Below are positions 7,950 through 40,186 of a stretch of DNA of 64,000 nucleotides, one piece after another. The stretch lies in the NCBI RefSeq assembly GCF_058153355.1, contig NZ_CM177019.1. The stretch is one strand, 5' to 3'. The translations under genes were made by a program, and so were the position numbers. The notes under the pieces are model-generated. The model was not told the DNA's origin, made no database searches, and saw only the letters and a list, made by a program, of their open reading frames with translations. Within the stretch, counting starts at the first letter, position 1; the number at the start of each line of letters is the position of its first letter.

Positions 7950-9082
7950 TTATCAATAACGTCAAACTGGTGCTGGAAAACGAAGTGGTACACGGTTCGC
8001 TGGAGGTGCAGGACGGCGAAATTCGCGCCTTTGCCGAAAGCCAGAGCCGCCTGCCAGAGGCGATGGACGGCGAAGGCGGCTGGCTGCTGCCGGGGCTGAT
8101 TGAGCTGCATACCGACAACCTCGATAAATTCTTCACTCCGCGCCCAAAAGTGGACTGGCCTGCCCACTCGGCGATGAGCAGCCACGATGCGCTGATGGTG
8201 GCGAGCGGCATCACCACCGTGCTGGACGCCGTGGCGATTGGCGACGTGCGCGACGGCGGCGATCGGCTGGAGAATCTGGAAAAGATGATCAACGCCATCG
8301 AAGAGACGCAGAAACGCGGCGTCAACCGCGCCGAGCACCGCCTGCACCTGCGCTGCGAACTGCCGCATCACACTACGCTGCCGCTGTTTGAAAAACTGGT
8401 GCAGCGCGAGCCGGTCACGCTGGTGTCGCTAATGGACCACTCACCGGGCCAGCGCCAGTTCGCCAATCGCGAGAAATATCGCGAATATTATCAGGGCAAA
8501 TACTCGCTCACCGATGCGCAGATGCAGCAGTATGAAGGGGAACAACTGGCGCTTGCCGCACGCTGGTCGCAGCCGAATCGCGAAACCATCGCCGCAATGT
8601 GCCGCGCGCGACAAATTGCCCTCGCCAGCCACGATGACGCCACGCACGCGCACGTTGCCGAATCCCACCAGCTTGGCAGCGTAATCGCCGAATTTCCCAC
8701 CACGTTCGAAGCGGCGGAAGCTTCGCGCAAGCATGGCATGAATGTATTGATGGGCGCGCCGAATATTGTGCGCGGCGGTTCGCACTCCGGCAACGTGGCG
8801 GCCAGTGAACTGGCACAGCTTGGTCTGCTGGATATCCTCTCTTCCGACTACTACCCCGCCAGCCTGCTCGATGCGGCATTTCGCGTCGCCGATGACGAGA
8901 GCAACCGCTTTACGCTGCCGCAGGCGGTGAAGCTGGTGACTAAAAATCCGGCCCAGGCGCTTAATCTTCAGGATCGCGGGGTGATTGGCGAGGGCAAACG
9001 CGCCGACCTGGTGCTGGCGCATCGCAAGGGCAACCACATTCATATCGATCACGTCTGGCGTCAGGGTAAAAGGGTGTTCTGA
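7946..9082 (+). CDS. phnM: Amidohydrolase-family phosphonate pathway protein PhnM
   Basis: 378-aa ORF overlapping phnL stop by 4 nt; recognised PhnM sequence. Confidence 0.9.
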
Positions 9083-11252: not shown

Positions 11253-11570
11253 TCAATTTTTCCGCTGCTCTATTGCCGTAATCGCCTCCACGCGTTGTTG
11301 ATGACGACCGCCTTCGTACTGCGCGCCCAGCCACGCATCCACAATCATTTTTGCCAGTTCGAGGCCAACCACTCGTGAACCAAAAGCCAGTGCAACTTCA
11401 CTGGCGTAATGCGGATAATCAGTGCGCTCTGACGACCTGGTTTCTTTATCAATCCCCTCACTCATTGACCATGAATAAAAGGCTGGCACAGCAACGCAGA
11501 ATCCTGCGGTGCCAGCGACATGACCGCCCATTGCTCCGGTACGTTTTTTAATAAGAAATACCGGTTGCAT
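11253..11570 (-). pseudogene. rpiB: Truncated ribose-5-phosphate isomerase B (rpiB) remnant
   Basis: 105-aa ORF whose C-terminal ~65 aa (…SSERTDYPHYASEVALAFGSRVVGLELAKMIVDAWLGAQYEGGRHQQRVEAITAIEQ) resembles the RpiB/LacAB C-terminus; the central Gly-rich catalytic segment is missing and the N-terminal 39 aa look unrelated or frameshifted. Full RpiB is about 149 aa. Confidence 0.55.
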
Positions 11571-11822
11571 TGATTAATTGTGCTCAGTATTTGCCGAAGT
11601 ACAATATATATAATAAATATATAAAACACCTCATATTATTTACAGAGATAATAAATTCGCGTACTTTTCCCTCTTCAGCACAAATGCCTAATAAAATGGC
11701 TCGTTCCGCTCACACTTCCACTTATTAAAATCGCAATTTCCCAATTATGATAACGCCAGCTTTAAATGACGTATTTTGCATGGATTACATATTTACGACA
11801 CAAATGATAAATGGAGATTTAT

Positions 11823-18856: not shown

Positions 18857-18864
18857 AATGTCAG

Positions 18865-18898
18865 CCGCGTGATGGCTGTCACGCGGTATTTCGTTTCG
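18865..18898 (+). terminator. Hairpin downstream of mdtP (CCGCGTGA-TGGCTG-TCACGCGG) followed by T-rich tract
   Basis: Perfect 8-bp inverted repeat 9 nt after the mdtP stop, then TATTTCGTTTCG. Confidence 0.45.
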
Positions 18899-18986
18899 TC
18901 ACGTCAAAACTGACGACAGCCTGTTTTTCGTCAGAGTTTTGAATAAATAGTGCCCGTAATATCAGGGAATGACCCCAAATAAAATG

Positions 18987-19002
18987 TGGCATAAAAGATG
19001 CA
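18987..19002 (+). promoter_or_regulatory. Sigma-54 (-24/-12) promoter of fdhF
   Basis: TGGCATAAAAGATGCA matches the GG-N10-GC sigma-54 consensus about 50 nt upstream of the fdhF ATG; fdhF is a classic sigma-54/FhlA-dependent gene. Confidence 0.6.
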
Positions 19003-19053
19003 TACTGTAGTCGAGAGCGCGTATGCGTGATTTGATTAACTGGAGCGAGACCG

Positions 19054-21201
19054 ATGAAAAAAGTCGTCACGGTTTGCCCCTATTGCGCATCAGGTTGCAA
19101 AATCAACCTGGTCGTCGATAACGGCAAAATCGTCCGGGCGGAGGCAGCGCAGGGCAAAACCAACCAGGGTACCCTGTGTCTGAAGGGGTATTATGGCTGG
19201 GATTTCATTAACGATACCCAGATCCTGACCCCGCGCCTGAAAACCCCCATGATTCGTCGCCAGCGTGGCGGCAAACTCGAACCTGTTTCCTGGGATGAGG
19301 CACTGAATTACGTTGCCGAGCGCCTGAGCGCCATCAAAGAGAAGTACGGTCCGGATGCCATCCAGACGACCGGCTCCTCGCGTGGTACGGGTAACGAAAC
19401 CAACTATGTAATGCAAAAATTTGCGCGCGCCGTTATTGGTACCAATAACGTTGACTGCTGCGCTCGCGTCTGACACGGCCCATCGGTTGCAGGTCTGCAC
19501 CAATCGGTCGGTAATGGCGCAATGAGCAATGCTATTAACGAAATTGATAATACCGATTTAGTGTTCGTTTTCGGGTACAACCCGGCGGATTCCCACCCTA
19601 TCGTGGCGAATCACGTAATTAACGCTAAACGTAACGGGGCGAAAATTATCGTCTGCGATCCGCGCAAAATTGAAACCGCGCGCATTGCTGACATGCACAT
19701 TGCACTGAAAAACGGCTCGAATATCGCGCTGTTGAATGCGATGGGCCATGTCATTATTGAAGAAAATCTGTACGACAAAGCGTTCGTCGCTTCCCGTACA
19801 GAAGGCTTTGAAGAGTATCGTAAAATCGTTGAAGGCTACACGCCGGAGTCGGTTGAAGATATCACCGGCGTCAGCGCCAGTGAGATTCGTCAGGCGGCGC
19901 GGATGTATGCCCAGGCGAAAAGCGCCGCCATCCTGTGGGGCATGGGTGTAACCCAGTTCTACCAGGGCGTGGAAACCGTGCGTTCTCTGACCAGCCTCGC
20001 GATGCTGACTGGTAACCTCGGTAAGCCGCATGCGGGTGTAAACCCGGTTCGTGGTCAAAACAACGTGCAGGGGGCCTGCGATATGGGCGCACTGCCAGAT
20101 ACTTACCCTGGCTACCAGTATGTGAAAGATCCGGCTAACCGCGAGAAATTCGCCAAAGCCTGGGGTGTAGAGAGTCTGCCTGCTCATACCGGTTATCGCA
20201 TCAGCGAGCTGCCGCACCGCGCAGCGCATGGTGAAGTGCGTGCCGCGTACATTATGGGCGAAGATCCGCTACAAACTGACGCGGAGCTGTCGGCAGTACG
20301 TAAAGCCTTTGAAGATCTGGAACTGGTCATCGTTCAGGACATCTTTATGACCAAAACCGCGTCGGCGGCGGATGTCATTTTACCGTCAACGTCGTGGGGC
20401 GAGCATGAAGGCGTGTTTACTGCGGCTGACCGTGGCTTCCAGCGTTTCTTCAAAGCAGTTGAACCGAAATGGGATCTGAAAACGGACTGGCAGATTATCA
20501 GTGAAATCGCCACCCGTATGGGTTATCCGATGCACTACAACAACACCCAGGAGATCTGGGATGAGTTGCGTCATCTGTGCCCGGATTTCTACGGTGCGAC
20601 TTACGAGAAAATGGGCGAACTGGGCTTCATTCAGTGGCCTTGTCGCGATACTTCAGATGCCGATCAGGGGACTTCTTATCTGTTTAAAGAGAAGTTTGAT
20701 ACTCCGAACGGTCTGGCGCAGTTCTTCACCTGCGACTGGGTAGCGCCAATCGACAAACTCACCGACGAGTATCCGATGGTACTGTCAACGGTGCGTGAAG
20801 TCGGTCACTACTCTTGCCGTTCGATGACCGGTAACTGTGCGGCACTGGCGGCGCTGGCTGATGAACCTGGCTACGCACAAATCAATACCGAAGACGCCAA
20901 ACGTCTGGGTATTGAAGATGAGGCATTGGTTTGGGTGCACTCGCGTAAAGGCAAAATTATCACCCGTGCGCAGGTCAGCGATCGTCCGAACAAAGGGGCG
21001 ATTTACATGACCTACCAGTGGTGGATTGGTGCCTGTAACGAGCTGGTTACCGAAAACTTAAGCCCGATTACGAAAACGCCGGAATACAAATACTGCGCCG
21101 TGCGCGTCGAGCCGATCGCCGATCAGCGCGCCGCCGAGCAGTACGTGATTGACGAGTACAACAAGTTGAAAACTCGCCTGCGCGAAGCGGCATTGGCGTA
21201 A
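19054..21201 (+). CDS. fdhF: Formate dehydrogenase H (selenocysteine-containing, molybdopterin) FdhF; in-frame UGA at 19471-19473 decoded as Sec
   Basis: Track ORFs 19054-19473 and 19522-21201 are in the same frame, separated only by a TGA; merged length is 715 aa; N-terminal Cys cluster CPYCASGC; the UGA sits in CCARV-U-HGPS and is followed by a hairpin. Confidence 0.92.
19474..19515 (+). promoter_or_regulatory. SECIS stem-loop directing selenocysteine insertion at the fdhF UGA
   Basis: Sequence immediately 3' of the TGA (CACGGCCCATCGGTTGCAGGTCTGCACCAATCGGTCGG…) can fold into the stem-loop expected for a bacterial SECIS. Confidence 0.7.
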
Positions 21202-21215
21202 TACAGTCCTTTCTA

Positions 21216-21243
21216 CAGCCTCCTGTCGGAGGCTGTTTTTTTA
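21216..21243 (+). terminator. Rho-independent terminator of fdhF
   Basis: CAGCCTCC-TGTC-GGAGGCTG hairpin followed by an 8-T run, 15 nt after the fdhF stop. Confidence 0.8.
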
Positions 21244-21986: not shown

Positions 21987-22250
21987 TAGGCCTGATAAGA
22001 CGCGGTAAGCGTCGCATCAGATATTAATGTCGGATGCGGCGTAAACGCCTTATCCGACCTACAAAATCACCCTAAATCAAGCTATTGCGCAGTCTGGCGT
22101 AGGCCTGATAAGACGCGGCAAGCGTCGCATCAGGCATTGATGTCGGATGCGGCGTAAACGCCTTATCCGACCTACAAAATCACGCTAAATCAGGCTATTG
22201 CGCAGTCTGGCGTAGGCCTGATAAGACGCGGCAAGCGTCGCATCAGGCAT
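21987..22250. repeat. BIME/REP array: five REP palindromic units in alternating orientation, about 113-bp period
   Basis: Repeated units TAGGCCTGATAAGACGCGGCAAGCGTCGCATCAGGC and GTCGGATGCGGCGTAAACGCCTTATCCGACCTAC, with near-identical 113-bp repeats starting near 21987, 22100 and 22213. Confidence 0.85.
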
Positions 22251-32678: not shown

Positions 32679-32795
32679 TGCCGGATGCGATCCGGGCAAC
32701 AAGTCGGAAACGATTTGTAGGCCTGATAAGACGCGACAGCGTCGCATCAGGCATTGATTGCCGGATGCGGCGTATAACGCCTTATCCGGCCTACA
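32679..32795. repeat. REP palindromic units between acs and yjcH
   Basis: TAGGCCTGATAAGACGCGACAGCGTCGCATCAGGC and GCCGGATGCGGCGTATAACGCCTTATCCGGCCTAC. Confidence 0.8.
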
Positions 32796-40044: not shown

Positions 40045-40186
40045 ATCAACACCAACCGGAACCTCCACCACGTGCTCGAATGAGGTGTGTTGACGTCGGG
40101 GGAAACCCTCCTGTGTACCAGCGGGATAGAGAGAAAGACAAAGACCGGAAAACAAACTAAAGCGCCCTTGTGGCGCTTTAGTTTTG
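40045..40186 (+). ncRNA. ryjA: Small RNA RyjA (SraL), converging on the soxR 3' end
   Basis: Known K-12 sRNA location between ghxP and soxR on the strand opposite soxR; a TACAAT -10-like element near 40033-40038; ends at a hairpin TAAAGCGCC-CTTGT-GGCGCTTTA plus GTTTTGTT that overlaps the soxR stop. 5' end is approximate. Confidence 0.45.

Follow-up and report, generated by a model that had tools for sequence, protein, structure and literature searches.

The interval 19054-21201 (+ strand) of the window, by which we mean the whole 64-kb stretch of DNA analysed here, is almost certainly E. coli fdhF, with the in-frame UGA at codon 140 translated as selenocysteine (Sec) and a SECIS hairpin on its 3' side. 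The identity of the product to formate dehydrogenase H (FDH-H), the score of the hairpin against the Rfam SECIS_2 model and comparative data from homologous genes together place this observation far beyond chance, and no finding speaks against this reading. The UGA and SECIS of fdhF have been known since the late 1980s and are the textbook case of bacterial Sec recoding, fdhF being the original example of UGA recoding in bacteria.

A single reading frame across the UGA

19054..21201, + strand: fdhF coding sequence, 715 codons plus TAA, formate dehydrogenase H with Sec at codon 140 (translation, PDB identity, TIGR01591, syntenic annotation)
19471..19473, + strand: in-frame UGA, read as the Sec codon for residue 140 (sequence, translation, X (Sec) at position 140 of the PDB chains, homologue column)

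A mechanical list of open reading frames divides this locus in two: frame 1 of the + strand holds one of 139 aa at 19054-19473 and another of 559 aa at 19522-21201. The TGA at 19471-19473 is read in the context GTT GAC TGC TGC GCT CGC GTC TGA CAC GGC CCA TCG, and translation of 19054-21201 yields 716 codons (715 and a terminal TAA) in which codon 140, within CCARV*HGPS, is the sole internal stop; there is no frameshift. An earlier note on this DNA had proposed one gene here rather than two, with the UGA in an active-site context CCARV-U-HGPS. That context is indeed seen in both the sequence and the translation, and the proposal of one gene is borne out by the common frame, the lack of a frameshift and homology that continues unbroken across the TGA to a 715-aa chain. 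The shared frame is not diagnostic by itself, because pairs of long stop-free stretches in the same frame with one stop between them occur 11 times in the 64-kb window, mostly at ordinary gene junctions, and we dropped 'two ORFs, same frame' as evidence.

For comparison with proteins in the PDB and NCBIfam, Sec140 was entered as C. Over residues 1-715 the merged product shows 100% identity with the chains of PDB entries 1aa6, 1fdo, 1fdi, 2iv2 and 7z0t, in which position 140 is X (Sec) and aligns with the UGA of the window, so that the assignment of the merged 715-aa product to formate dehydrogenase H, also made in the earlier note, stands over its full length. The NCBIfam profile TIGR01591 ('formate dehydrogenase subunit alpha') matches residues 6-685 across its whole extent (profile 1-672/672) with 1095.7 bits, compared to a cut-off of 666.25. 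Residues C8, C11, C15, C42, Sec140, His141 and Arg333 are all present in the translation and aligned to the solved chain. From the 1FDO structure, we take the four cysteines to be the N-terminal 4Fe-4S ligands and Sec140, His141 and Arg333 to form the active site at the molybdenum centre, where Sec140 would be a Mo ligand. FDH-H itself is the subunit of the formate hydrogenlyase complex that holds molybdenum and selenium.

If the TGA were a real stop, the locus would encode one protein of 139 aa and a separate one of 559 aa, which is exactly what the mechanical ORF caller returns, and the 11 same-frame pairs of the window show how common such an arrangement is at ordinary junctions. Both pieces, however, align without a break to one crystallised 715-aa chain with Sec at their junction, and the ATG at 19522 from which the 559-aa frame would start is the internal Met157 of that chain. 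Moreover, the column occupied by the TGA holds Cys in 50 homologues, and a SECIS above the gathering score follows the TGA. Two separate proteins are therefore, in our judgement, so improbable that the possibility can practically be set aside in favour of one selenoprotein gene.

Anatomy of the SECIS hairpin

19466..19520, + strand: full extended SECIS hairpin, SECIS_2 (RF01988) (covariance-model match, pairing across 31 distinct homologues)
19466-19470 with 19516-19520, + strand: 5-bp basal helix enclosing the UGA (Rfam SECIS_2 model)
19471..19510, + strand: classical 40-nt fdhF SECIS, counted from the U of UGA (definition of PMC8659212, sequence, fold)
19474-19484, + strand: 11-nt spacer CACGGCCCAUC (sequence)
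19485..19501, + strand: minimal 17-nt apical stem-loop GGUUGCAGGUCUGCACC, nt 15-31, putative SelB-binding site (sequence, PMC8659212, homologues)
19487, + strand: bulged U17 (sequence, PMC8659212)
19492-19495, + strand: GGUC loop, with G23 and U24 at 19493 and 19494 (sequence, PMC8659212)

The Rfam SECIS_2 model (RF01988) matches positions 19466-19520 over its full length (model 1-55/55) with 87.9 bits (E 1.2e-17; the gathering score is 70), and the matched sequence is identical to the consensus at all 55 positions. This is the only SECIS match in the 64-kb window. The E. coli fdhF SECIS has been described as a 40-nt hairpin in which the upper 17-nt stem-loop spans nt 15-31 (the U of UGA being nt 1) at a distance of 11 nt from the UGA, with U17 bulged and with U17, G23 and U24 as critical bases (PMC8659212); the sequence of the window agrees with this published anatomy base for base. 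The minimum free energy (MFE) structure of 19471-19520 is the same as the SECIS_2 consensus structure. A stem-loop for Sec insertion directly after the UGA, as the earlier note had suggested, is thus supported by the full-length model match, by the MFE fold and by the fit to the published anatomy.

The MFE of 19471-19520 is -14.9 kcal/mol, a value that does not stand out from dinucleotide shuffles (z -0.08; 90/200 shuffles fold as well). For the 40-nt element the MFE is nearly the same in the two classes of gene, -12.0 kcal/mol in Sec-type and -11.2 kcal/mol in Cys-type. Folding energy was consequently dropped as a SECIS criterion, and the fdhF case illustrates that the free energy of a hairpin alone cannot identify a SECIS.

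Sec-specific selection on the hairpin

Homologues were collected by scanning one genome per prokaryotic species with the pattern TGYGCNCGNGTNTGHCAYGGNCC, that is CARV-x-HGP with TGA, TGC or TGT at the key codon, which gave 120 stretches. Six chance matches were discarded, and sequences were kept that had at least 70% identity to the window protein over 76 codons together with full flanks. The resulting set divides evenly into 50 Sec-type homologues, with TGA in the column of codon 140, and 50 Cys-type homologues, with TGC or TGT there; often a Sec-type and a Cys-type gene come from one and the same genome.

Over codons +1 to +13 the synonymous codon diversity is 0.17 in Sec-type and 0.58 in Cys-type genes (50 each, the species in the two groups not being phylogenetically independent samples), whereas in the flanks it is 0.42 and 0.45 in Sec-type and 0.48 and 0.47 in Cys-type genes. 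The difference is sharpest at codons +6 to +9, which encode the apical stem-loop, where Sec-type genes show a diversity of 0.00 compared to 0.22-0.74 in the Cys-type. GGUC at nt 22-25 is present in every Sec-type sequence (52/52) and in only 3/62 Cys-type sequences, all six apical pairs can form in 42/52 and 0/62, respectively, and the SECIS_2 gathering score was reached at 5/10 Sec-type and 0/10 Cys-type loci scanned. The Sec-type loci that fall below this threshold are diverged versions from Pasteurellaceae, Budvicia and Coriobacteriales. The fdhF SECIS RNA is under Sec-specific selection, beyond what the protein needs.

Pairing across the homologues bears out the structure described in the literature, which is paired in 92.6% of cells among 31 distinct Sec-type sequences, compared to 22-48% in slid controls with the partners placed 1-3 columns off. 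Two apical pairs have undergone compensatory change in these 31 sequences, G15-C31 to U-A and U18-A29 to A-U; both changes are confined to Pasteurellaceae and may therefore each represent one evolutionary event. Both the apical and the basal helix emerge de novo from RNAalifold, including the U18-A29 register. The literature register, with U17 bulged, accounts for 92.6% of cells paired and two compensatory pairs, against 91.6% and one for the Rfam consensus register, in which U18 is bulged; we set the latter aside since it fits slightly worse across the homologues.

Cys-type homologues and paralogues of FdhF in Enterobacterales and other bacteria (L003, L006, L007 and L025 are examples) belong to the same family and carry the motif CCARV-C-HGPSVAGL; across 76 residues surrounding the site, their identity to the window protein is ~75-79%. 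They differ in having TGC or TGT for TGA and in a free synonymous drift over the hairpin region (0.58), with no conserved GGUC loop, at most 5/6 apical pairs and no SECIS_2 match; SelB is not needed for their synthesis. The Sec-type fdhF genes of Pasteurellaceae, Morganellaceae and Hafniaceae (L004, L027, L045, L026, L075 and L119) share with the window the UGA codon, GGUC at nt 22-25 and the spacing. Their hairpins nonetheless differ in detail: in Pasteurellaceae the apical pairs are swapped (U15-A31, A18-U29), with an A19.C28 mismatch in three genomes, while Morganella, Hafnia, Edwardsiella and Proteus have G in place of C30. All three Pasteurellaceae loci that were scanned, as well as that of Budvicia, fail to reach the gathering score of SECIS_2.

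Eukaryotic and archaeal SECIS elements are likewise mRNA structures that redefine UGA as Sec, and they lie in untranslated regions, are structures of the kink-turn type and act through other factors; PMC9622424 discusses the archaeal system. The fdhF SECIS, unlike these, is of the SelB-binding bacterial type and sits within the coding sequence, immediately 3' of the UGA.

The basal helix, which brackets the UGA and lies partly beyond the classical 40-nt SECIS, is 99.4% paired across the 31 distinct Sec-type sequences. Three third-codon positions pair with G in this helix, and these are pyrimidines in 49/50, 50/50 and 50/50 Sec-type compared to 32/50, 38/50 and 44/50 Cys-type homologues. It is conceivable, though we think it rather unlikely, that the basal helix is itself Sec-specifically selected and tunes how SelB and release factor 2 compete, for example by occluding the UGA or timing its exposure. 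Rfam already includes this helix in its model, and were the idea true, the novelty would lie solely in what the helix does.

Variation within Escherichia and genomic context

The best E. coli match departs from the fdhF gene of the window at 14 nt and the E. coli species representative at 62 nt, with 0 amino-acid changes in the latter; for E. albertii the difference is 91 nt, and 3 amino acids change. Changes in the hairpin within Escherichia are limited to C to U at 19467, which converts a C-G pair to U-G, and to T/C at the unpaired bulge position 19515. Compared with E. coli K-12 fdhF, the protein is identical (715/715) and the SECIS corresponds to the Rfam consensus (55/55), with the same 11-nt spacing, bulged U17 and GGUC loop and the same neighbours, mdtP and yjcO. 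The only differences from other E. coli fdhF genes are the 14 to 62 synonymous nt changes, of which 0-1 fall in the hairpin and leave its structure intact; in function the genes do not differ.

These data bear on whether fdhF might instead be a pseudogene created by a nonsense mutation such as TGC to TGA, for which it can be said that a single base change turns a Cys codon into TGA and that Cys-type homologues exist. The TGA is nevertheless common to 50 species-level homologues that have a selected hairpin absent from the Cys-type genes, and 0 amino-acid changes against 62 nt changes relative to another E. coli are the opposite of decay. Together with the unbroken identity to the solved chain, these observations exclude both two genes and a nonsense pseudogene, and we accord the latter, too, only a negligible probability compared with an intact selenoprotein gene.

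The window has the gene order of E. coli chromosomes, with the phn operon, an rpiB remnant, yjcS, ytcA-mdtNOP, fdhF, yjcO, gltP, nrf and acs, and its mdtNOP-fdhF-yjcO-gltP order is shared with E. coli genomes that annotate fdhF as one coding sequence. No tRNA gene, including selC, was found in the 64-kb window, and in E. coli genomes with the same synteny the annotation shows no sel gene anywhere along the stretch that corresponds to the window. This absence of sel genes near fdhF is expected for E. coli. According to the syntenic annotation, the hyc operon and fhlA are not within the 64-kb window; in E. coli these formate hydrogenlyase partner genes are located elsewhere on the chromosome.

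The UGA and SECIS could in principle be intact and yet remain undecoded in the source strain, were a sel gene missing or defective, in which case the 139-aa fragment would be the only product. Such a situation would be compatible with a window that has no tRNA gene and a syntenic annotation that has no sel gene. In addition, no complete E. coli genome exceeds 98.5% identity to the window, which leaves no close relative from which to read off the gene content of the strain. Against this, the perfect conservation of the fdhF protein and SECIS argues for continuing selection for function, and E. coli generally carries selA, selB, selC and selD. We consider an undecoded UGA improbable, if a little less so than a pseudogene or a pair of genes, and decoding as Sec remains the reading that we adopt.

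Expression signals around fdhF

18864-18887: terminator-like hairpin of mdtP
18987..19002, + strand: sigma-54-type -24/-12 promoter-like element TGGCATAAAAGATGCA, putative promoter, 52 nt upstream of the fdhF ATG (match to TGGCAY-N5-WTGCW, position)
19042..19045, + strand: Shine-Dalgarno-like GGAG, 8 nt before the ATG (sequence)
21215..21236, + strand: intrinsic-terminator-like hairpin and T-run, 14 nt past the fdhF stop, 9 pairs (6 G-C), tail TTTTTTTATCC

The sigma-54-type element is the single match to TGGCAY-N5-WTGCW in the window, where 0.64 would be expected by chance; the count is not significant, and we retain the element as a putative promoter because of its position and not on statistical grounds. 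The region upstream of fdhF yielded no sigma-70-like promoter. The gene has been listed as a sigma-54/FhlA target, with CATTTCGTACGAAATG given as the 16-mer FhlA consensus (PMC4987338). When this consensus was compared with the region upstream of fdhF, the best match had 7 mismatches, a figure that many random sites in the window equal, and at this random level we claim no FhlA enhancer site there. Repeats are also present upstream of fdhF, at 18894-18933.

Proposed decoding of the UGA

In the scheme that we propose from established knowledge, the mRNA 3' of the UGA folds into the SECIS, with its apical 17-nt stem-loop beginning 11 nt after the UGA. The apical loop would be bound by the C-terminal domain of SelB carrying Sec-tRNA(Sec) and GTP (PMC8659212, PMC4513850), and the SECIS-bound SelB would hold this ternary complex at the right distance from the UGA. 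Once the UGA enters the ribosomal A site, Sec-tRNA(Sec) would compete with release factor 2 and Sec would be inserted, while ribosomes that lose the competition would be expected to release the 139-aa fragment. Recoding at the fdhF SECIS amounts to 30-40% in vivo (PMC4513850). The UGA finding at fdhF adds nothing new to this mechanism.

Implications for annotation and for the fdhF family

The earlier note expected a truncated gene from any automated annotation. This is what a naive ORF caller gives, but not RefSeq, which in other E. coli genomes gives the orthologous fdhF as a single 2148-nt coding sequence with no pseudogene flag. Truncation is a widespread problem according to a 2026 database paper (PMC13326102). 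Annotation quality is indeed the only respect in which the UGA finding at fdhF matters: a naive ORF call cuts a 715-aa selenoenzyme in two, and merging the pieces restores the active-site Sec. For the fdhF family, the comparison of Sec-type with Cys-type homologues is a clean illustration of RNA-level selection within a coding sequence.

SECIS register and natural variation

In the apical stem-loop of fdhF at 19485–19501 (alignment A1, columns 20–36), the SECIS_2 consensus structure (Rfam RF01988) has U18 bulged, counting from the U of the UGA as 1. Comparative sequence data favour the U17-bulged register of the literature over this Rfam register, because of the A18-U29 pair in Pasteurellaceae and the RNAalifold de novo fold.

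The basal helix (19466–19470 with 19516–19520) can be followed through the third-codon positions that take part in its pairing. These are all but confined to pyrimidines in Sec-type genes (49/50, 50/50 and 50/50), while the same three positions of Cys-type genes, which carry TGC or TGT at the key codon, hold a pyrimidine in 32/50, 38/50 and 44/50 (Fisher p = 1.4e-5, 2.3e-4 and 0.027, uncorrected for phylogeny).

Natural variants of the apical stem are coupled to changes in the protein. Three Pasteurellaceae, an Actinobacillus sp. (homologue stretch L045), Cricetibacter (L079) and Pasteurella bettyae (L087), have an A19.C28 mismatch together with Ala to Thr at codon +6 after the UGA, and in Morganella, Providencia, Hafnia, Edwardsiella and Proteus (L026, L056, L075, L081, L108, L119) C30 is replaced by G, giving G16.G30, with a change of HQ to QR. 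A distant Sec-type homologue from an uncultured Coriobacteriales (L104, 58% local identity) keeps GGUC at exactly nt 22–25 after its own UGA, with different stem sequences; the Rfam model scan gave no SECIS_2 match to this locus.

Sec-type fdhF and a Cys-type paralogue occur together in many Enterobacterales genomes (L002/L003, L005/L006, L025/L026, L072–L074 and others), and in Pluralibacter gergoviae a single Cys-type copy accompanies two of the Sec-type.

Features around fdhF

Approximately 55–110 nt upstream of the sigma-54-like element (18987–19002) lie two repeat features:

18894–18901 and 18926–18933, direct repeat TTTCGTCA
18902–18915, palindrome CGTCAAAACTGACG

This region (18894–18933) may be an FhlA enhancer; its repeats and palindrome do not match the published FhlA 16-mer consensus (PMC4987338).

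The Rfam scan of the window also returned three matches to naRNA4, a REP-derived nucleoid-associated RNA, scoring 68–79 bits, and a full-length match (153 bits) to an Hfq-binding sRNA:

21989–22059, minus strand, naRNA4, yjcO-gltP spacer just downstream of fdhF
22102–22172, minus strand, naRNA4, same spacer
32720–32791, minus strand, naRNA4, acs-yjcH spacer
40045–40185, plus strand, sraL

At the rpiB-yjcS junction only the C-terminal part of RpiB is kept:

11253–11570, minus strand, RpiB remnant, 105 aa

In the window yjcS follows directly, at 11811, and the D-allose (als) operon, which lies between rpiB and yjcS in K-12, is absent between the two. One syntenic complete E. coli genome has the same annotation of this region.

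Relation to other E. coli genomes

The best identity for the 24 kb at 8000–32000 among 5,426 complete E. coli genomes is 98.5%, and the source lineage is therefore without a close complete relative among them. Despite this ceiling for the surrounding 24 kb, the FdhF protein is identical to the K-12 crystal-structure sequence, and fdhF differs from that of the E. coli species representative by 62 nt and 0 aa.
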